From IMG/VR virus record IMGVR_UViG_2695420456_000022: a stretch of 7,100 nt of DNA; one strand, written 5' to 3'. Positions 1 through 7,100 of the stretch are shown in pieces (within the stretch, counting starts at the first letter, position 1; each line of letters opens with the position of its first letter). A program made the translations under genes and the position numbers. Below the pieces are notes generated by a model. The model was given only the letters and a program-made list of their open reading frames with translations. It was not told the origin of the DNA and ran no database searches. This DNA is from a virus. Lineage: Duplodnaviria > Heunggongvirae > Uroviricota > Caudoviricetes.

Positions 1-217
1 ATATGTCCTTTTATCACCATATCAAGACAAGCCATTGATTTAATTAAATAATCTTCACTGAAAAAAGTGCCAAAAATCGCAAATTGACTACACCATTAAC
101 TACACCGTTCGGTGCACCGTATGAAACAACGTGGAACAAATAGACACAAGAAATATACAGGCGGATCATCTTTCCAGGGGGAAGCGCACCAATTCATGAG
201 GGGCGTTAATGTCTATA

Positions 218-250
218 TGGGGATCCCCACCTACCGGAATTTTTTTCCGG
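218..250. promoter_or_regulatory. Palindrome TGGGGATCCCCA plus CCGGAA-T5-TTCCGG hairpin
   Basis: Perfect 12-bp palindrome at 218-229. Inverted repeat CCGGAA (234-239) / TTCCGG (245-250) with a T5 loop. Function unknown; possible weak plus-strand terminator or protein-binding site. Confidence 0.3.
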
Positions 251-371
251 TTAAACGTTAATCAGGCTGGTGGGCTTTACCTGTTCGGTAGGTGTTATGA
301 TTATCGTAATACCTTTCCCCCAATGGGGTAAAAGCATCAACCGTAACGAAAGTCGTTATGGTTGCCACTGA

Positions 372-452
372 TACCCCAAATTTGGGTATCACGAGTAAGC
401 CCCAAAATCTGGGTGTTACTCTTACTACCCAAACTACGGGTAGTTTCCGTAG
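372..452. repeat. Three phased, degenerate ~27-bp tandem repeats with a conserved dyad core ACCC(C)AAA-N3/4-GGGT
   Basis: R1 372-398 TACCCCAAATTTGGGTATCACGAGTAA; R2 399-425 GCCCCAAAATCTGGGTGTTACTCTTAC; R3 426-452 TACCCAAACTACGGGTAGTTTCCGTAG. R1/R2 identical at 17 of 27 positions. R1 core is a near-palindrome (GATACCCCAAATTTGGGTATC). Related cores at 316-328 and 705-716. Confidence 0.6.
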
Positions 453-462
453 TTTCATGGTC

Positions 463-482
463 GAGTTGCAGATCTGCAACTC
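463..482. repeat. Perfect 20-bp palindrome GAGTTGCAGATCTGCAACTC
   Basis: The sequence is its own reverse complement. It lies immediately after the 27-bp repeats in a region with no convincing ORF. Confidence 0.7.
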
Positions 483-523
483 CCCCATTAACCACAGGCG
501 AATTTCCGCCTTCGGTCATTCCT

Positions 524-574
524 TAATCATCTGCGTAATCATAATGATTATTCAGCAAGCGCAATTTTGCGCTT
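524..574. promoter_or_regulatory. Operator-like motif cluster: TAATCAT twice direct plus once inverted, then a GC hairpin
   Basis: TAATCAT at 524-530 and 536-542, inverted copy ATGATTA at 544-550 (15-bp palindrome 536-550). 8-bp-arm inverted repeat AAGCGCAA-TT-TTGCGCTT at 557-574. Confidence 0.4.
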
Positions 575-736
575 TGCTTAAAGTTCAGCGAGTTACCGCG
601 CCGACTTCCTCAAATTGAGGTTTCCGAAAATATCAGCGGGTTAGCGATTAAGCTGACCATTAATTAAACTGCGAAAATGTCGTAGTTGTGAGGGGTGTAG
701 CCAACCCATTTTTGGGCCGTCGGGAATATCAACCAG

Positions 737-1018
737 TTACCGCCGCAACCGCTCCGGCTTCTTCCAGTGGTACGTTATTTTCTCCTTCTCCCGATACATC
801 TCCACGCGGCGACGGTAGGCCAGCAACTCAAGAACTCTGGTTCGTATGTTGCGCATATCCACGCCATTAAGTTCTATACCATCACGGCGCATCACCTCAG
901 CAACAACACGCGCATAGTTTTCGGCTGTCACGCTGTCCGGCTGCGTGGCCTGTTCGTCAGCCTGCTGGCTGATTCCGGCAACGCGGCGGATTAATCCCGT
1001 TATTTCGGCTTCTGTCAT
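737..1018 (-). CDS. Hypothetical protein (93 aa), last gene of the operon
   Basis: ATG start 13 nt after the terL stop with a GAGG SD 8 nt upstream (TAATGAGGTCAGCAGCATG). Charged, basic C-terminus (KITYHWKKPERLRR). No family recognised. Confidence 0.55.
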   Translation of the reverse strand: MTEAEITGLIRRVAGISQQADEQATQPDSVTAENYARVVAEVMRRDGIELNGVDMRNIRTRVLELLAYRRRVEMYREKEKITYHWKKPERLRR

Positions 1019-1031
1019 GCTGCTGACCTCA

Positions 1032-2693
1032 TTACACCCCGCTAAATTCTTCCAGTTTCTGGCGGTGGCTGTCGCTTATATCAAAAGCAAAATCCTCATG
1101 CTCTGCCTGGAATGTACCAAACGCCATCAGCGCCGCCACGCTCGGGTCTATCTTGTTCGGTGATTTTTTCTTGTTCGGCTTGATATTGGCGTTCGCGTCA
1201 CTCTGCATCACGACGTTACTCATCGACCAGGACAACACCGGATCGCCACGATGCACAATCACCCTGCGGTTAACAAAAACTTCGAACGATTTCGCCGCCG
1301 GACTGAATCTGAGGTAGGTTTGCGGGAACGGCTCCACCTCAAAACCTGCCCCCTGTAATTGCGTTCTGAGATGCGTGGCGTTCCACGTATCAAAGCCCAC
1401 CAGCCTGATATTAAATTTCTCCGCGTCCTGCATGATGTCATCTCTGATCCGGTCGTAATCAATGCAGTCGCCAGGCGTTGTGCGTATCCAGCCTGCTTTA
1501 GCCCACTGACGATAGATGGCGCGGTTTTTATTGGCGGGGTTCTGTAGCTGGAACTCCGGCAGATAATGACGGGAAACCAGCATAATGGTTTTACCTACCG
1601 GAAAGGCATAGCACACGCTGGAAATATCGCTTGTGGATGATAAATCCAGCCCCGCGTAACACTCCTGGCCGTGTAAATCTTCCTCCGTGAACGTTCCGGC
1701 ACACTCAGCCCATGCGCCGTTACCCATCCACGGGGTAGTCCCCTGACACCAGATATTAAATCGCTTTGTCATCATCTCCACCCACTGCGACGGAATACCC
1801 CGCGCTTTCTGGATGGTTGAGGCCAGTTTTTCACGATCCACGGAAACATCAATATTAGGGTTCGCCTTTATCCACATCGCCGGATCATCAACCTCGTTTT
1901 CGTCGTCCAGTTCGTAAATCAGTACAAAAATTGAATCGTTAACCTCTTCGCCGTCCAGGATCTGGCAGCAATAATCATAGTGCTGCTTACAGGCTGAAAC
2001 GACGTTGCTGCCTGATGTGGTAATGGCAAATAACAGCCCTTCGGGACGTGCGCCCATCCCCAGCTCAAGCGCGGAATAAACGCCGTTATCGGGGTGCAAG
2101 TGGTATTCGTCCACGATGGAAAGGCTGGGGTTTGTTCCCTCGATGGTTGCCGCTTTTGCTGCCAGCGGCTTTAACAGGCTGTTGCTTTTCGGGTGTATCA
2201 CCTTATGCGCCTGAATATTCACCCGCCTGCGTAACGGTCGGGATAAAAGGCACATCTGACGCGCATCATCAAAGACGATCCGCGCCTGGTCACGGCTCAC
2301 CGCTGCGGTGTAGATATCCTGCTGACCGTTCTCCATAATCAGAAACCAGTTAGCCAGAATCGCGGCGGTCGTTGATTTCGCATTTTTGCGCGGCACTTCG
2401 ATAAAGGCGCTCGTATATTTGCGCCGTCCGGTGGCCTTAACCTTAAAGCCGAGGATGCACGCAAAGGCGAACTGCTGCCACGGCTCCAGCTCAATGGGTC
2501 TGCCACGCATCGGCCCTTTTACGTGCGGGCACACCCTGGAAAAGGCAATAAACCGATCCACAACCTCACGATCGAACGTGTAAAGGGGGCTTTTAAGGTC
2601 CGAAAAGTACCGTTTAACGGCCTGTTTCAGCCGTTTACAGGCCGGAATTTTGCCCGTTTTTACGTCTTCTGCGTACCTATTCCAGGCGGTCAA
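1032..2693 (-). CDS. terL: Terminase large subunit (ATPase + nuclease), HK97-like Terminase_1 type
   Basis: 553-aa ORF with a P-loop-like VPRKNAKSTTAAI, Walker B-like LSIVDEYH and a C-terminal nuclease-like region (AGLDLSS..., LVGFDTWN). The start codon at 2693-2691 is TTG, preceded by GAGGA at about -11. Confidence 0.92.
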   Translation of the reverse strand: MTAWNRYAEDVKTGKIPACKRLKQAVKRYFSDLKSPLYTFDREVVDRFIAFSRVCPHVKGPMRGRPIELEPWQQFAFACILGFKVKATGRRKYTSAFIEVPRKNAKSTTAAILANWFLIMENGQQDIYTAAVSRDQARIVFDDARQMCLLSRPLRRRVNIQAHKVIHPKSNSLLKPLAAKAATIEGTNPSLSIVDEYHLHPDNGVYSALELGMGARPEGLLFAITTSGSNVVSACKQHYDYCCQILDGEEVNDSIFVLIYELDDENEVDDPAMWIKANPNIDVSVDREKLASTIQKARGIPSQWVEMMTKRFNIWCQGTTPWMGNGAWAECAGTFTEEDLHGQECYAGLDLSSTSDISSVCYAFPVGKTIMLVSRHYLPEFQLQNPANKNRAIYRQWAKAGWIRTTPGDCIDYDRIRDDIMQDAEKFNIRLVGFDTWNATHLRTQLQGAGFEVEPFPQTYLRFSPAAKSFEVFVNRRVIVHRGDPVLSWSMSNVVMQSDANANIKPNKKKSPNKIDPSVAALMAFGTFQAEHEDFAFDISDSHRQKLEEFSGV

Positions 2694-3033
2694 GCTCGTC
2701 CTCTTCTTCTGTTTCCGGTGGATTTTTACGGCGGCTTATCGGGTCAAAACCGAGCAAGGAGGCCATTTTTATCATCACTCTTTCCGCGTCGGATTTCGCG
2801 CTTAATGCGGGGTTTCTGCTCTCGCCGCCCTGACTGTTAACAATGCTGAACCCGCGCGCCGCAAGGTCTGCGACGGCTTTCCGGTATATCGAGTAATTGA
2901 CGCAATACAGTTCCAGATTGCTCCAGTCGGCGGGAGTCAGGTCACCCCGTTCCGCAAGCTGCCGCGATTTTTCCCGCCACTGCTTCACGGCGATATCATC
3001 CAGGTAGGCGGGGGCTTTCGGTGGTCTTGCCAT
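2677..3033 (-). CDS. terS: Terminase small subunit (P27-family-like)
   Basis: 118-aa ORF directly upstream of and overlapping terL by 17 nt. Sequence (YLDDIAVKQWRE...LELYCVNYSIYRKA...GGESRNPALSA...LLGFDPISRRK) fits my recollection of P27-family small terminases, with an acidic C-terminus. Confidence 0.82.
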   Translation of the reverse strand: MARPPKAPAYLDDIAVKQWREKSRQLAERGDLTPADWSNLELYCVNYSIYRKAVADLAARGFSIVNSQGGESRNPALSAKSDAERVMIKMASLLGFDPISRRKNPPETEEEDELDRLE

Positions 3034-3156
3034 GCTTATTTTTTCGCCAGATTATTTTTCAAAAAATTCCCGTGCATAAAAATTTGAGGAGGCGGTCGGT
3101 GCCCGGCGGGGTCGGGTTTGTCCTGAAAACGCCCCCCACCCCGTCATACAGCCTCA
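3034..3156 (-). promoter_or_regulatory. Intergenic region upstream of terS; candidate cos/packaging-initiation region and/or terS promoter
   Basis: About 120 bp non-coding gap between the small ORF and the terS start. It holds a GC-rich tract (3086-3116, GAGGAGGCGGTCGGTGCCCGGCGGGGTCGGG, with GGTCGG twice), a poly-C/poly-G run (3131-3143) and an AT-rich tract next to terS. The position (HNH / gap / terS) is where HK97-like phages place cos. Confidence 0.3.
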
Positions 3157-3339
3157 TCAGCGATTGCGGAAACATTCCATAACCTCGCGGTCACGGTCGG
3201 TTAATCGCTTCGCTGTGATGCGTTCTGCGCATCCTGACGCTTTATCTTTATGCCCTGTTTCCTGTGTCTTCCATGCGTCACGCTGCCTTATAAGTCCACG
3301 GATAAGGCGGTTTTGTTCCCGCTCATTCATCAGCGTCAT
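3157..3339 (-). CDS. Hypothetical small basic protein (57-60 aa), speculative
   Basis: This is the 3' part of the 134-aa track ORF 3157..3561, which extends beyond the HNH stop. Candidate starts are ATG 3339 or ATG 3330, the latter overlapping the HNH stop as ATGAATGA. Product MTLMNEREQNRLIRGLIRQRDAWKTQETGHKDKASGCAERITAKRLTDRDREVMECFRNR. Weak SD; could be a chance ORF. Confidence 0.25.
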   Translation of the reverse strand: MTLMNEREQNRLIRGLIRQRDAWKTQETGHKDKASGCAERITAKRLTDRDREVMECFRNR

Positions 3340-3763
3340 ACATCCAGTTATTGCGGTTAGCGGCCCGTTCTTCCTCTTCACGAAATCCACCTGCGGCACG
3401 CTTACTTTTTGTTGCCGGATCAAGCCATTTCGTTTTCTGGTTATGGCACGCCTGACACAATGGTTGATGGTTCCATTCGGGCCAGAAGAGAACATCATCA
3501 CCGCCATTAATCGGGATAATGTGATCCACCACCACGGCGGGCGTATATATCCCCTTCTCAAGGCATCGCACGCATAACGGGTTTTTACTCAGATACATGG
3601 CGCGGTATTTGTCCCACTGTCTGGAGTACCCACGCGCGCGGCGGTGTCCTCGTCTGGCATCCTCTGCACGCCATGCCGCCCGCCTGTGCTCCTCACACTT
3701 GCCGGACTTCACGCGCCTGTTACAGCCTGGTTCTGTGCATCGTCTTAATGGTTGCCACGGCAT
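3323..3763 (-). CDS. HNH endonuclease (terminase-associated)
   Basis: 146-aa ORF with Cys pairs (CTEPGC, CVRC, CQAC) and HNH core VVDHIIPINGGDD...NHQPLCQACHNQK. Start ATG overlaps the connector stop (TGATG, 3761-3765). It lies immediately upstream of terS, as in HK97-like cos phages. Confidence 0.85.
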   Translation of the reverse strand: MPWQPLRRCTEPGCNRRVKSGKCEEHRRAAWRAEDARRGHRRARGYSRQWDKYRAMYLSKNPLCVRCLEKGIYTPAVVVDHIIPINGGDDVLFWPEWNHQPLCQACHNQKTKWLDPATKSKRAAGGFREEEERAANRNNWMYDADE

Positions 3764-4059
3764 CAGTACACCCCCACATCACGGTAAGCCGTCCAGAGTG
3801 CACCAATCGTCATGGGTACGCGTGTTTTTGCGTTATCCGCGACAATCTGGCGATTTTCATACAGGTGAGCGATAAACATCATGCAGCCAATCTTTATGGC
3901 TGGCGTGAACTCCAGCCCGTCATCAAAGCGCCTGCCTATGTGTATCTGGCACGCCTCAAGCGATGCGGCAATGTATCCGCTGATTAACTGGTCTTCCTCG
4001 TCGCCATCGATGCGGCAATGGAGTTTCACTTCTTCCAGGGTGATAAGTTCTTCTGTCAT
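3763..4059 (-). CDS. gp6-like head-tail connector protein
   Basis: 98-aa ORF; N-terminus ITLEEVKLHCRIDGDEEDQLISGYIAAS matches the L.E.K.HLRID.D.DD.LI..I.AA signature of gp6-like connectors. ATGA overlap with the upstream gene stop (4056-4059). Confidence 0.7.
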   Translation of the reverse strand: MTEELITLEEVKLHCRIDGDEEDQLISGYIAASLEACQIHIGRRFDDGLEFTPAIKIGCMMFIAHLYENRQIVADNAKTRVPMTIGALWTAYRDVGVY

Positions 4060-4394
4060 TTTTCCGCGCCCTCACGACAAAGAATTTCAAGGCGTGTCCT
4101 GGCGGCATCCGGCAGCGGCTGCCCGATGATATTCAGTACACGCCCCGCCAGCGGCCCCGTATTGACCTTTATCCGGCTGGTGGCGTTGATGTCCTTCCTG
4201 TAGCGTATCCATACCCTTACCGTTCCAGTCGCCAGTTCTGCACCCGATGAAATGGCCTCCTTGCTGCTGATCATGTTCACGCTTGCCCAGAGTGTGTGAC
4301 CGTCCACCCACGTTTCGAGTATTTCGCCCGTCATGGCTCTGGTCTGTTTCAGGGTCTGAATCGTTACCCTGTCACGCAGTCGCCCTATGTTCAT
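4056..4394 (-). CDS. Head-closure / head-tail adaptor protein (HK97 gp7-like, Phage_H_T_join-like); the ORF track starts it at 4436, but the ATG at 4394 is favoured
   Basis: Sequence MNIGRLRDRVTIQ...VRVWIRYRKDI...RLEILCRE matches the head-closure family pattern. The ATG at 4394-4392 overlaps the portal stop (4393-4391) as ATGA and has AGGGAG upstream; the 4436 ATG has no SD. Confidence 0.7.
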   Translation of the reverse strand: MNIGRLRDRVTIQTLKQTRAMTGEILETWVDGHTLWASVNMISSKEAISSGAELATGTVRVWIRYRKDINATSRIKVNTGPLAGRVLNIIGQPLPDAARTRLEILCREGAEK

Positions 4395-5602
4395 TCCGGT
4401 TTTTCTCCCTCGCTGATTTTTACTTCCTGTTTCCATGCCTGGCTGAACTCATCACCACCATCACGCGGTGACAGTCCTTCACGTTCGCGGGCTTCGTTCG
4501 GACACATAACGCCGGATTTGATGCCGCGCTCATAGGTGGCAAAGCGTTCGCCAGGTGTGGCCCGTAACAGGTCCGCGCTGTCAAACTCCACCTGATACCG
4601 GATACCAGGTACAGGCGAGGCCACCAGCAGGGCGTTTTTTATCTGCTGCTCAAAGTTCGCCAGCCACGGGCGCATCGTCATGGTGAGAAATGCGCGGCTT
4701 GCCTCGCTGAAATTGCTGTAGGTGCTGTTGCTGTATTCCTGCAAAAAAATCGGCGAGACGTTGAACATTCTGGCGATGTCTTCAATGGTGAAGCGACGGG
4801 AGGCCAGCCATTCAGCATCCTGATTACTCATGCCCAGCTGCTGATAGCTCATACCCCCTTCAAGGATGGGCGTTTTTCCGGCGTTTCTGGCCCCTTTGTA
4901 GCGTTCCAGTGCGGCTAATGCCTGTTTGCCCTTCACGCCGTCCAGCCATTCGCCTGACGTGATAACCCCTGCCGCCATCATGCCATCACGCATCACGCTC
5001 GCGCCGTGGCGTTGTTGGGCCAGCCCAAGCCCCAGCGATTCGCGGCAGATGGTTACAGGTGAGCGCCCCATAAAACCGTCATCCGTGGAGTAACGAAGGT
5101 GGAGAACCTCCCACGGTAAATAGTTGCGGGTGTTTCCGGTGTAGGCGTCAGTGATGCAGTAGCGCCAGTTATGCTCACCTGTCTGCTCAACGTTCACCGA
5201 CTGCGGCGGGTAAGGATGCAAAGCGACCGGAAAACCATCACGCCCCCACTGAATCACCGCATAAGCATTACCGTTTAACAGGCAGTGGCGGATCATCATT
5301 CGCTTAAACTGGTAGGGGGTTTGCCATGCGTTCGGGCGCTCGTTGAGGATGTGATCGACCGGATGAGAATCAAGCCACTCGCGGGCCTCCTTCCCCTTCT
5401 CATTGCGTACCAGGTACAGGTAACACGGCATGGTAGCCACCGCCTCAGAGATGACCGTCACGGCGTTCATGACGGCGGGCAGTGATTCCGCTGTCCCCGA
5501 TGATACGTACTCACCCGCCCCCGTGTTCGATGTGCCAGCCAGCGCCATAAACTCATCAAGCGTCATGCTGCGCTGCTCTTTTTTTCTTCTGAAAGGCCAC
5601 AT
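4391..5602 (-). CDS. Portal protein, HK97 family
   Basis: 403-aa ORF whose length and conserved blocks (LLNGNAYAVIQW, EVLHLRYSTDDGFMGRSP, RFTIEDIARMFNVSPIFL, RPWLANFEQ) fit the HK97-type portal pattern. Its start is 1 nt after the protease stop, and a GGGGGTG SD-like element lies upstream. Confidence 0.88.
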   Translation of the reverse strand: MWPFRRKKEQRSMTLDEFMALAGTSNTGAGEYVSSGTAESLPAVMNAVTVISEAVATMPCYLYLVRNEKGKEAREWLDSHPVDHILNERPNAWQTPYQFKRMMIRHCLLNGNAYAVIQWGRDGFPVALHPYPPQSVNVEQTGEHNWRYCITDAYTGNTRNYLPWEVLHLRYSTDDGFMGRSPVTICRESLGLGLAQQRHGASVMRDGMMAAGVITSGEWLDGVKGKQALAALERYKGARNAGKTPILEGGMSYQQLGMSNQDAEWLASRRFTIEDIARMFNVSPIFLQEYSNSTYSNFSEASRAFLTMTMRPWLANFEQQIKNALLVASPVPGIRYQVEFDSADLLRATPGERFATYERGIKSGVMCPNEAREREGLSPRDGGDEFSQAWKQEVKISEGEKPE

Positions 5603-5603
5603 A

Positions 5604-6176
5604 TCACACCCCCGCTAAATCCGCCCACCAGCGGCGATTATCCGCACGCGGCATTTTTTCGGGGTGCTGCTCATACAGGGAACGGCGGGCCAGCTCCACG
5701 TCGGAATCAGGGTAAGCCGGTACGGATGTAACGGTAATTTCGTACAGTTCCGCCACCAGCACGGTGCGCACGCATGGATCTGTTGTGGTATCCCATACAT
5801 CCTTACGGGAACGAAAGCCAAAGCTCATGCCGGATATATCACCTCGTTTAACCAGTTCGATAACGTCGCGCCCTGTACTGGTATCCGGTGGGGTCAGTTC
5901 AAAGCGTAACCCTGTTTCGTCCTCTTCCAGTTTCAGCGTGCCGGAACGGGTGCGCCCCAGTAACATGCTGTGGTCATGCTCATACAGGCCGCGAACGTCA
6001 TTACCCGCCGCAAGCCATTCAGTAAACGCCCCCCGCTGGAATTTTTCGTAAAACTCACCCCATAACAGTTCTGAAAGCTTATCCCAGCGAACAATGTAGC
6101 CCGTCAGCGTACCGGCTCCGCTGGTGGTGATTTCCGATGACCGGATTTCCATACTCTTCATAATTTTTTCACCCAT
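5604..6176 (-). CDS. Prohead maturation protease, HK97 family (S78-like)
   Basis: 190-aa ORF with motifs GYIVRWD, GAF, YEHDHSMLLGRT (candidate catalytic His) and GMSFGF (candidate catalytic Ser), then YEITVTSVPAYP. ATG at 6176 has no obvious SD; the ATG at 6161 (MKSMEIR...) is preceded by GGGTGA and may be the true start. Confidence 0.85.
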   Translation of the reverse strand: MGEKIMKSMEIRSSEITTSGAGTLTGYIVRWDKLSELLWGEFYEKFQRGAFTEWLAAGNDVRGLYEHDHSMLLGRTRSGTLKLEEDETGLRFELTPPDTSTGRDVIELVKRGDISGMSFGFRSRKDVWDTTTDPCVRTVLVAELYEITVTSVPAYPDSDVELARRSLYEQHPEKMPRADNRRWWADLAGV

Positions 6177-6185
6177 AAAACACTA

Positions 6186-6205
6186 AAGGGGCTTTTAAGC
6201 CCCTT
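6186..6205 (-). terminator. Hairpin between capsid and protease genes; possible partial intrinsic terminator or attenuator
   Basis: Inverted repeat AAGGGGCTT (6186-6194) / AAGCCCCTT (6197-6205). On the coding (minus) strand it lies just after the capsid stop codon (6216-6218) and is followed by TTTAGTGTTTTAT before the protease ATG. The U-tract is interrupted, so it is not a textbook terminator. Confidence 0.35.
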
Positions 6206-6215
6206 CTGTATGCTA

Positions 6216-7100
6216 TTAATCGTCGTCCTGTGGCAGTTCCAGAATCTTGATCGCGTTCGAATCCACCACGCCACCGCCTAAATATTTCTGCGCGAAAATT
6301 TTGATGAAGCCCGGCTCTGTGAGGTTGTCCGGTCTGGTGCGAACACCTGTTTCGTGATCAACAATGTAGTAACCGCGTTTGAAGTCACCCAGGGCAATAA
6401 CGTTATCCGGCATAAACTCCAGATATTCGACCGGAAGGCCCAGCAACGTATCAGGATCACCCGCCTGTAAACGGTCACGCCAGATGTAATCACCGTTCGC
6501 GTTCTTCACCTTCTGGAGTTTTGCCGCCGTCGTGGAGTTAACCACCCAGACCGCGTTTTTGCGGTATTTTTTACGTAATGCAAATTTCAGGTCGATCAGC
6601 GGGTCCGCAGATGTCCACGCCAGAGATTCGGAAGGTTTAATTACCTGCAACGTACCAAAATCACGCTCTTTGTCGTTCTTCTCTGCACGGGGTACGGATA
6701 AAAAGCCTTTTGCTTTTTTGTCACCGTCGCCCACAACCAGATCGCTTTCTTCGGTTTCCGTGAAGGTGTCGCCAATCTCGCCCGTCAGCCATGAAAGGAT
6801 GTCCACATCGGAAAAATCCACGATTTCCTGCGTGGTGCGCGGGTACGCATAGACCGGATACAGCTTAATGCTCACCTCGTTAATCTGCGGGGTGCTGGTC
6901 TGTTCGCGTGCCTTACCCTCTTCACCGTGGTTAACGGTCGCACCGCCAGCGGAAACAAGCTGCTTAAACTCGTTGCTGCTGATTTTCTTCGTAAGCGTCG
7001 TCTCAGCACCGTCTGGCAGATCCTGAAATTCCTGAGAGAATAGTGGACACCAAATATGGTGGACGCTATCCATGAAATCATTAACCGCAGTGCGTAAAAA
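6216..7100 (-). CDS. HK97-fold major capsid protein, 5'-partial (reading frame stays open to the window edge at 7100; the ATG at 7073 is probably internal)
   Basis: The C-terminal half (LLGLPVEYLEFMPDNVIALGDFKRGYYIVDHETGVRTRPDNLTEPGFIKIFAQKYLGGGVVDSNAIKIL) matches the conserved pattern I associate with HK97-family capsid proteins (L.G.PV...MP....GDF...Y.I.D..G..........F.......GG.V.D..A.K.L). There is no in-frame stop between 7073 and 7100 and no Shine-Dalgarno before the 7073 ATG. It sits next to protease and portal genes. Confidence 0.8.
   Translation of the reverse strand, partial: FLRTAVNDFMDSVHHIWCPLFSQEFQDLPDGAETTLTKKISSNEFKQLVSAGGATVNHGEEGKAREQTSTPQINEVSIKLYPVYAYPRTTQEIVDFSDVDILSWLTGEIGDTFTETEESDLVVGDGDKKAKGFLSVPRAEKNDKERDFGTLQVIKPSESLAWTSADPLIDLKFALRKKYRKNAVWVVNSTTAAKLQKVKNANGDYIWRDRLQAGDPDTLLGLPVEYLEFMPDNVIALGDFKRGYYIVDHETGVRTRPDNLTEPGFIKIFAQKYLGGGVVDSNAIKILELPQDDD

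Follow-up and report, generated by a model that had tools for sequence, protein, structure and literature searches.

This locus raises the question of what kind of element carries a head-building and packaging module with no tail genes attached. The window, by which we mean the whole 7,100-nucleotide stretch analysed here, had been proposed from its letters alone to be a candidate capsid-forming PICI (cf-PICI). We found that the cf-PICI reading is correct and that the element has already been characterised: it is a close variant of a published prototype and holds no new biology. Very probably, the window covers the ~7 kb farthest from int in an EcCIEDL933-type cf-PICI lying between phoQ and roxA (ycfD) in E. 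coli, with an IS66-family element in codon 128 of its capsid gene, and this copy is most likely capsid-defective.

The packaging module and its class

All of the recognisable genes lie on the minus strand, in the order capsid, S78 protease, portal, head closure, gp6-like connector, HNH, 60-amino-acid open reading frame (ORF), terS, terL and 93-amino-acid ORF. The features, from capsid to last gene, are as follows (identities are to the EcCIEDL933 proteins).

6216–6990, minus strand: major capsid gene, 3′ part, codons 128–385 of 385 (PF05065, 2.4e-51; TIGR01554)
5604–6176, minus strand: HK97-type prohead serine protease (Peptidase_S78, PF04586, 2.5e-48; 96.8% identity)
4391–5602, minus strand: portal (Phage_portal, PF04860, 9e-91; 99.5% identity)
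4056–4394, minus strand: head closure or head completion protein, Hc1 (Phage_HCP, PF05521, 9e-23; phrog_25; 94.6% identity; reading-frame span 4056–4394/4436)
3763–4059, minus strand: gp6-like head–tail connector or adaptor, Ad1 (Phage_connect_1, PF05135, 8e-12; phrog_40; 100% identity)
3323–3763, minus strand: HNH endonuclease, packaging cofactor (PF01844, 1.8e-08; 99.3% identity)
3157–3339, minus strand: 60-amino-acid ORF in the gap between HNH and terS (phrog_3173, 6.3e-36; 98% identity to the EDL933 copy)
2677–3033, minus strand: terS, P27 family (Terminase_4, 1.3e-23; TIGR01558; 100% identity)
1032–2693, minus strand: terL (TerL_ATPase and TerL_nuclease; 98.2% identity)
737–1018, minus strand: 93-amino-acid ORF, the last gene of the island (phrog_1561, 2.9e-56; 87% identity)

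Pfam searches bore out the gene order of the original prediction from the capsid to the 93-amino-acid ORF, with one gene missed, the 60-amino-acid ORF. That ORF is annotated in both E. coli FORC_042 and EDL933 and, judging from the gene numbering, probably corresponds to 'hypothetical gene 1792' in the published nine-gene packaging module. The 60-amino-acid ORF had no match in NCBIfam and the 93-amino-acid ORF none in Pfam, NCBIfam or PDB searches; the only matches of either were to PHROGs of unknown function. The order had also been called inverted. It is indeed permuted relative to HK97, but the genes all lie on one strand and no DNA is inverted. Synteny of the module was present in 367 of 5,426 complete E. 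coli genomes, and the gene order is therefore not due to chance.

Cf-PICIs are defined in SatelliteFinder by 11 core components, with tail and holin genes forbidden, and are expected to be satellite-sized units (~10–17 kb) between att repeats. In the window, the S78 protease, portal, connector and head closure (PF04586, PF04860, PF05135, PF05521, phrog_40 and phrog_25) were found at full length, as were the island's own HNH, terS and terL (PF01844; PF05119/TIGR01558; PF03354 and PF20441). An HK97-fold capsid was also present (PF05065, 2e-51; TIGR01554, 5e-63), over codons 128–385 only. All component families of the head set described earlier as complete were thus found, but the capsid is partial. 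The expectation that no tail genes occur in the 7.1 kb held: neither the ORF list nor Pfam yielded a tail, holin or lysin ORF in the window.

Direct comparison with EcCIEDL933 identified the element. Window positions 725–6990 were 97.2% identical in DNA to its module, which makes this a known element instead of a candidate one. The proteins were 87–100% identical to their EcCIEDL933 counterparts, with no internal stops, and the nine packaging genes 94.6–100% identical. A 14.8-kb island at the same locus in E. coli FORC_042 was closer still, matching window positions 1–6990 at 99.8% DNA identity. Its gene order runs int, alpA, replication gene, SSB and PerC, then the packaging module, with AAATATGTCC repeats at both flanks. 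In other copies, 99.4–99.99% identical, int, alpA, pri/rep, SSB and PerC likewise lie upstream, and these copies occupy at least three attachment sites. An integrase, an AlpA-type regulator and a primase or replicase were found upstream of the capsid gene in every near-identical copy examined, as the original prediction had anticipated. The int/alpA/rep half of this genome's own copy would accordingly be expected from its relatives, the source contigs ending in the IS.

These relatives bear on another reading, in which the locus is no satellite but the remnant of an HK97-like prophage whose tail and lysis genes were deleted. All eight proteins do fall in HK97-type phage families, as the proposed profile searches confirmed. 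The capsid fragment fits the EcCIEDL933 structure 9gyi ('Major head protein', residues 129–385, 1e-170), and the next-best solved capsids come from a gene transfer agent, which might also suggest such an origin. The unit, however, is ~15 kb, bounded by att sites and equipped with a PICI-type int/alpA/rep set, and it recurs in the 367 complete genomes and at no fewer than three att sites, never with tails. The tail module (tube and tape measure) and lysis genes of an HK97-like prophage were absent from the window and all related loci, and the complete islands 99.4–99.99% identical to it contained no tail, lysis or holin genes. Its gene order is unlike that of HK97-like phages, portal identity to true phages does not exceed 35%, and close 'phage' records are limited to entries of satellite size (15–16.5 kb). 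The prototype is, moreover, experimentally a satellite. We therefore consider prophage decay extremely unlikely and keep the cf-PICI assignment, which a reader without tools was able to make from gene order alone.

EcCIEDL933 served both to define the cf-PICI family and to test it by mutagenesis (Alqurainy et al., bioRxiv 10.1101/2022.09.08.507074). Induction by a helper phage, small capsids containing island DNA only and the use of helper tails have been shown experimentally for EcCIEDL933 and a few others only; mutation of each EcCIEDL933 packaging gene abolished or severely lowered transfer, a capsid mutant gave no transfer, and mutations in helper tail genes abolished cf-PICI transfer (bioRxiv 10.1101/2022.09.08.507074). 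In published work, the EcCIEDL933 capsid has T=4 symmetry and its mature protein begins at residue 93.

By analogy with the 97%-identical prototype, in which the whole course of events is established experimentally, an intact island of this type would respond to a helper phage by AlpA-dependent induction and would then excise and replicate. A single co-directional operon, comprising capsid, protease, portal, head closure, connector, HNH, the 60-amino-acid ORF, terS and terL, would be expressed, and its products would assemble into small T=4 capsids of the HK97 fold. A cos- and HNH-dependent terminase would package island DNA only, and the filled heads would join the tails of a helper phage, for example HK106. 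In the copy studied here, the ~2.45-kb IS66-family element in capsid codon 128 would block its own capsid formation.

An IS66-family element in the capsid gene

The capsid frame had been read through to position 7100. We found instead that the capsid sequence ends at 6990, where similarity to all island copies stops, and that the remainder is the end of an insertion sequence.

6991–7100, plus strand: left end of an IS66-family (ISEc22-like) element, with the terminal inverted repeat GTAAGCG from 6991 and tnpA from 7072

IS66-like ends from ~1,960 E. coli genomes match this stretch at 95–98% identity, and the alignment starts at the IRL of a 2,454-bp ISEc22-family copy; ISEc8 of EDL933, which we also considered as the inserted element, did not match. 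The insertion point falls after nucleotide 383 of the capsid gene. The intact capsid has an STGVPAD motif at residue 93, and the insertion lies 35 residues into the mature capsid protein. The predicted 8-bp target duplication is TTTTCTTC. The remaining capsid fragment is identical to the EcCIEDL933 capsid at 255 of 257 residues (99.2%), and the intact relative L019 differs from the window by 1 nucleotide in 6,990, which indicates that the insertion is recent. The chimeric 285-amino-acid capsid/IS ORF is not on record.

The window makes up the terminal 7.1 kb of draft contigs, which break off within the IS. Of the two source contigs, found with the protease and terL as queries, one (L021) ends 2 nucleotides past the window and the other (L022) 33 nucleotides short of its end, so that both stop 77–112 nucleotides into the IS. 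This is what would be expected where a repeat interrupts an assembly graph, and the capsid/IS junction was found in 0 of 5,426 complete E. coli genomes and, by exact search, in no species-representative genome. Both points are compatible with an intact and functional island whose positions 6991–7100 are an assembly artefact, a chimeric contig end at a repeat. Against this, the break coincides base for base with the terminal inverted repeat of IS66, as expected of a true insertion, and the junction recurs at contig ends in at least two independent assemblies, each matching the window at 100% identity. A real insertion also normally shows itself in short-read assemblies by contigs that break off one k-mer into the IS. 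An artefact is thus very unlikely. With the left junction of the IS alone seen here, a rearrangement or deletion beyond the IS may be present instead of a simple insertion.

An IS in codon 128 most likely deprives this copy of the ability to form capsids or to transfer by itself. The disruption weakens the description of the island as a functional cf-PICI, but not as a cf-PICI by descent. The other packaging genes appear intact from their sequences and, with the putative cos region, are essentially identical to those of functional relatives. Cf-PICIs are also common, with this type in 367 of the complete genomes surveyed, and genomes with several satellites are noted in published work. Mobility could on these grounds persist through a capsid supplied in trans by a second cf-PICI, or through generalised transduction. 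We regard this as unlikely: the IS lengthens by ~2.45 kb a genome of ~14.8 kb, packaged cos to cos into a T=4 head, it probably blocks operon transcription from upstream, and nothing points to a second cf-PICI in the source genome. A capsid-defective copy remains our preferred reading, and it illustrates that an IS insertion can silently inactivate cf-PICI satellites. Where draft contigs end in the IS, a disrupted capsid gene resembles mere truncation at the edge of a window, and marker-gene surveys of cf-PICIs may score such copies as complete.

Island ends and a candidate cos region

The original prediction had treated the ~730 bp beyond the 93-amino-acid ORF as non-coding. Credible genes are indeed absent, but these 736 bp are island DNA with an attR core, arm-type repeats and a structured element.

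1–8, no strand assigned: attR core AAATATGTCC, its first 2 nucleotides lying outside the window and overlapping the phoQ stop codon
87–107, plus strand: tandem ACTACACC repeat, putative integrase arm-type binding site; the 21-mer ACTACACCATTAACTACACCG recurs beside int

The window begins within the right-hand repeat (attR), and beyond position 1 the source contig continues into phoQ-phoP-purB. In FORC_042 the att 10-mer occurs exactly twice, 14,785 bp apart, and in EDL933 twice, 15,461 bp apart; in both genomes the pair flanks the island, in agreement with the direct repeats that the original prediction had called for as a check. The corresponding K-12 site is empty and reads AAATATGCCC. These comparisons would place the end of the island at window position 8. 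The 21-mer ACTACACCATTAACTACACCG also adjoins int at the opposite island end (L001 29639–29659), which is consistent with a putative role of the ACTACACC repeat as an integrase arm-type site.

A candidate cos site would lie in the spacer between the 60-amino-acid ORF and terS.

3107–3143, no strand assigned: candidate cos region, a 10-nucleotide GC-rich inverted repeat (I2) CGGGGTGGGG / CCCGACCCCG with a 17-nucleotide spacer

In LR881103.1, a related 16.5-kb element, the deposited linear genome ends in ...TTTTCAGGAC, which is homologous to the inside of this spacer, and restarts 22 nucleotides before terS. We infer from this that cos may lie at about 3107–3143. A lambda-type cos in the terminal non-coding region was rejected: we found no cosN-like 12-mer within 2 mismatches there, and no similarity to the lambda left end.

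A structured element at the int-distal end

318–500, no strand assigned: structured element of ~180 nucleotides with 4–5 hairpins, including the 20-nucleotide palindrome GAGTTGCAGATCTGCAACTC at 464–483

RNA folding of this element gave z-scores of −9.5 (minus strand) and −8.7 (plus strand). Its core is common to the int-distal ends of classical E. coli PICIs. It had no phage match, no Rfam family or tRNA was found in the window, and a 28-nucleotide degenerate pattern, used to look for the element in other species, had no matches in 185k representative genomes. Five distinct copies, read by eye for covariation, contained one compensatory or palindrome-symmetric change and some changes compatible with G-U pairing, five being too few to separate an RNA, a DNA hairpin and a protein-binding site. 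Possible identities are a non-coding RNA, a terminator or insulator that acts in both directions, or a group of palindromic sites bound by protein. Together with the upstream 93-amino-acid ORF, it might form an undescribed, conserved 'terminal module' of classical and capsid-forming E. coli PICIs, absent in EcCIEDL933, with a possible role in satellite regulation or packaging; we offer this as a tentative and rather doubtful proposal.

Comparison with known systems

HK97-like phages have the order terS, terL, portal, protease, capsid, adaptor and head closure, with HNH beside cos. The window shares with them the families of P27-type terS, terL, portal, S78 protease, gp6-like adaptor, head closure and HNH, and an HK97-fold capsid with an SxGxxAD maturation motif. 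It differs in that the order is permuted and the tail, lysis and phage replication genes are missing, and the cf-PICI capsid is T=4 whereas that of HK97 is T=7.

Classical E. coli PICIs of the EcCICFT073 type have an int/alpA/pri-rep left half like that of the window's relatives, a homologue of the terminal ~93-amino-acid ORF and the structured element at the int-distal end, and both classes are induced by helper phages. Unlike cf-PICIs, classical PICIs are without portal, connectors and terL and use helper capsids. In classical PICIs the helper terminase is redirected by Rpp to a lambda-like cos, whereas no lambda cosN-like motif was found in the terminal non-coding region here.

Two further elements, Escherichia phage vB_KppS-Ant (LR881103.1, 16.5 kb) and Pasteurella phage Pmp8 (OR544139.1, 15.3 kb), share the module order and an int/primase backbone, with portal identities of 81% and 62%, respectively. 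They differ in DNA identity (65–71%), hosts and accessory genes. Both are labelled phages, not satellites.

The closest known system is EcCIEDL933 of E. coli O157:H7 EDL933, which shares the phoQ/roxA site, the att core and the order from capsid to 93-amino-acid ORF. Its capsid gene is uninterrupted, whereas here it is split by the IS66-family element, and ~90 bp in EcCIEDL933 replace window positions 367–579, a region that includes the structured element. The replication module of EcCIEDL933 has a DUF927 gene, whereas the closest relatives of the window have a RepA/AAA_25 or D5_N primase.

A head and packaging module of the EcCIEDL933 lineage

A six-frame ORF listing combined with Pfam scans revealed a co-directional minus-strand array running from the capsid to a 93-aa ORF in the window, with the gene order and content of the original prediction. 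PHROGs additionally assigned an overlooked 60-aa ORF to phrog_3173. Along the whole module, neighbouring genes overlap or adjoin at their start and stop codons, resembling a single operon. No tail or lysis genes were detected in the window by the same ORF listing and scans.

Genes of the module (window coordinates, strand, assignment, protein identity to EcCIEDL933)
6216 upward, minus: HK97-family capsid (PF05065, 2e-51); fragment, 99.2%
5604-6176, minus: S78 prohead protease (Pfam); 96.8%
4391-5602, minus: portal (Pfam); 99.5%
4056-4394 by annotated start, minus: head completion/closure protein (Pfam; PHROGs 'head closure Hc1'); 94.6%
3763-4059, minus: gp6-like connector (Pfam; PHROGs 'head-tail adaptor Ad1'); 100%
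3323-3763, minus: HNH (Pfam); 99.3%
3157-3339, minus: 60-aa ORF (phrog_3173); 98.3%
2677-3033, minus: P27-type terS (Pfam); 100%
1032-2693, minus: terL (Pfam); 98.2%
737-1018, minus: 93-aa ORF (phrog_1561, function unknown); 87.1%

Downstream of the capsid stop codon and ahead of the protease start codon, we also observed a minus-strand terminator-like hairpin (6185-6206; 9 bp, GC-rich) with a T-rich tail, which may attenuate transcription and thereby set capsid/protease stoichiometry.

By megablast, 367 of 5,426 complete E. coli genomes carry the module at ≥80% coverage. The best match was FORC_042 (99.8% identity over window 1-6990), in which the window equivalent starts directly after the phoQ stop codon, within an island between phoQ and roxA. 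This island encodes, in order, a tyrosine integrase, an AlpA-like HTH protein, small ORFs, DUF4222, a RepA-type helicase, SSB and PerC, followed by the window module. The matching array at the phoQ/roxA locus of E. coli O157:H7 EDL933 (NZ_CP008957.1, 1680329-1694760) is EcCIEDL933, the 15.4-kb element used to define the cf-PICI family (bioRxiv 10.1101/2022.09.08.507074). EcCIEDL933 is 97.2% identical to window 725-6990 at the DNA level and 87.1-100% identical per protein, which bears out the proposed assignment to capsid-forming satellites. In addition, the capsid fragment matched residues 129-385 of the 385-aa 'Major head protein' in PDB 9gyi (1e-170), whereas the next-best solved structures, Rhodobacter gene-transfer-agent capsids, scored 3e-38. 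The window element is an EcCIEDL933-lineage cf-PICI by descent, with all features of the module present and with int, alpA, rep and attL seen solely in its near-identical relatives.

An IS element interrupts the capsid gene

Similarity to the window ends at 6990 in every island copy. Alignment placed the break precisely where the terminal inverted repeat (GTAAGCG...) of an ISEc22-family element begins. A search with window 6900-7100 matched 6979-7100 to IS66-like element ends in ~1,960 genomes (longest matches 6972-7100, including a few island bases), and found the capsid/IS junction in none of the complete E. coli genomes. A reference ISEc22-family copy has its inverted repeats 2,454 bp apart and its tnpA start 81 nt inward of the repeat, which corresponds to a plus-strand ATG at window 7072.

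6991-7100, plus: left end (IRL) of an IS66-family (ISEc22-like) element; GTAAGCG repeat, tnpA start at 7072

The window holds just the last 775 nt of an expected 1,158-nt capsid gene, which locates the IS after capsid nt 383, in codon 128. The intact capsid protein has its maturation motif, STGVPAD, at residue 93, where the mature protein is published to begin, so the insertion splits the mature capsid protein. The 285-aa mechanical ORF at 6216-7073 fuses IS and capsid sequence, its first 27 residues being translated from the IS end. Reading that whole frame as capsid, and the head set as complete, was therefore incorrect.

An exact-protein look-up with terL retrieved at least two draft contigs with 100% identity to the window. 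CYDC01000010.1 (GCA_001285425.1) stops 2 nt past the window end, 112 nt into the IS, and CAKKGQ010000012.1 (GCA_918376305.1) stops 33 nt short of it, 77 nt into the IS. The contig extension suggested at the outset is thus impossible past the capsid end. Beyond the window start, the flank consists of chromosomal genes: phoQ, phoP, purB, hflD, mnmA and onward. Because an intact island copy (L019) has a single mismatch to the window over 6,990 positions, the insertion is recent and the remainder of the module free of decay.

Island boundaries and a structured non-coding element

Direct repeats had been anticipated at the ends of the element, and a 10-mer att core, AAATATGTCC, is present in exactly two copies in the FORC_042 locus (L001 14999-15008 and 29784-29793), 14,785 bp apart and flanking the island. 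The EDL933 locus likewise has exactly two copies, which flank the island at a distance of 15,461 bp, in agreement with the published 15.4 kb. The K-12 site is empty and reads AAATATGCCC within the 75-bp phoQ-roxA spacer. The final eight bases of the right-hand copy, which overlaps the phoQ stop codon, are window 1-8, so the island reaches its end in the first bases of the window. The first 736 bases, originally described as ~730 bp of non-coding DNA, indeed contain no ORF with any family match, but they are island DNA. Window 87-107 carries a 21-nt tandem repeat, ACTACACCATTAACTACACCG (repeat unit ACTACACC), that recurs beside int at the opposite island end (L001 29639-29659) and is therefore plausibly an integrase arm-type site.

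Window 318-500 (~180 nt) is far more stably folded than shuffled controls (RNA fold z -9.5 and -8.7), forming 4-5 hairpins, among them a perfect 20-nt palindrome at 464-483. Its core (~388-490) recurs at 94%, 94% and 77% identity in three classical E. coli PICIs located at other att sites, always at the int-distal end, just downstream of the last ~93-aa ORF, whereas EcCIEDL933 lacks the element. Comparison with Rfam, tRNAs, phages and lambda cos gave no match for the element, and no copy was found in species-representative genomes.

Predicted consequences for transfer

EcCIEDL933 induction requires alpA and a helper phage (HK106 or HK446), as published. Mutation of any packaging-module gene leaves replication intact and abolishes transfer, and a mutant of hypothetical gene 1792 shows severely reduced, but not abolished, transfer (bioRxiv 10.1101/2022.09.08.507074). 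Because the numbering 1786-1794 covers nine genes, we infer that the 60-aa ORF is gene 1792. In published work, island transfer was unaffected by helper head mutants but abolished by helper tail mutants; the gene 1786 product builds a T=4, 47.5-nm, HK97-fold capsid, and adaptor and connector proteins decide the tail fit.

Between the 60-aa ORF and terS lies a GC-rich inverted repeat of 10 nt (17-nt spacer; 3107-3143), a candidate cos. As deposited, the linear vB_KppS-Ant genome terminates at the homologous ...TTTTCAGGAC inside this inverted-repeat region and restarts 22 nt before terS, which hints at such a site, although record ends may be conventional rather than physical.

The window copy most likely does not retain the family's capacity to form its own capsid. 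With the capsid protein lost, probable polar effects on operon genes downstream and an additional 2.45 kb in the cos-to-cos unit for a T=4 head, this copy is predicted to lack autonomous transfer.

Relatives and comparison with phages

Exact-protein look-ups with protease and terL placed the island at at least three sites: roxA/phoQ, pntB/ydgV-mdtIJ and beside rcnR. The capsid-to-terL module was constant across retrieved copies, barring decayed and IS-ended contig copies, while the replication genes varied (AAA_25 helicase, D5_N primase or DUF927). As in the window, tail and lysis genes were absent from every copy retrieved. A deletion variant at the pntB/ydgV site (JBAGQM010000007.1, L009 10573-12107) contains capsid, protease and then the 93-aa ORF, without the portal-to-terL genes. 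In a phoQ/roxA copy (CP026839.1, a 4.27-Mb genome; L012 10706-15144), terL is split and the portal genes are split or shortened, a second, independent example of decay in this lineage.

At the DNA level, only six records in the phage collection matched. The best were Pasteurella 'phage' Pmp8 (OR544139.1, 15.3 kb) and Escherichia 'phage' vB_KppS-Ant (LR881103.1, 16.5 kb), which share the int/primase and head-module layout of the island and are thus satellites themselves. In vB_KppS-Ant, the position right after terL, which in the window belongs to the 93-aa ORF, is taken by a 765-aa gene with a tape measure protein annotation (L026 2036-4333); in Pmp8, a gene annotated 'tail terminator' (L027 14914-15321) adjoins the capsid gene. 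These may be accessory genes or misannotations.

The closest homologues are satellites rather than complete prophages. The element is of a kind already known, and its IS-disrupted variant is ordinary mobile-element decay. A 106.5-kb Klebsiella phage record (PQ569648.1) matched at the record end with a portal 80% identical, whereas portal identity was ≤35% in the other phage records, in agreement with the published <40% identity of phage homologues (bioRxiv 10.1101/2022.09.08.507074).
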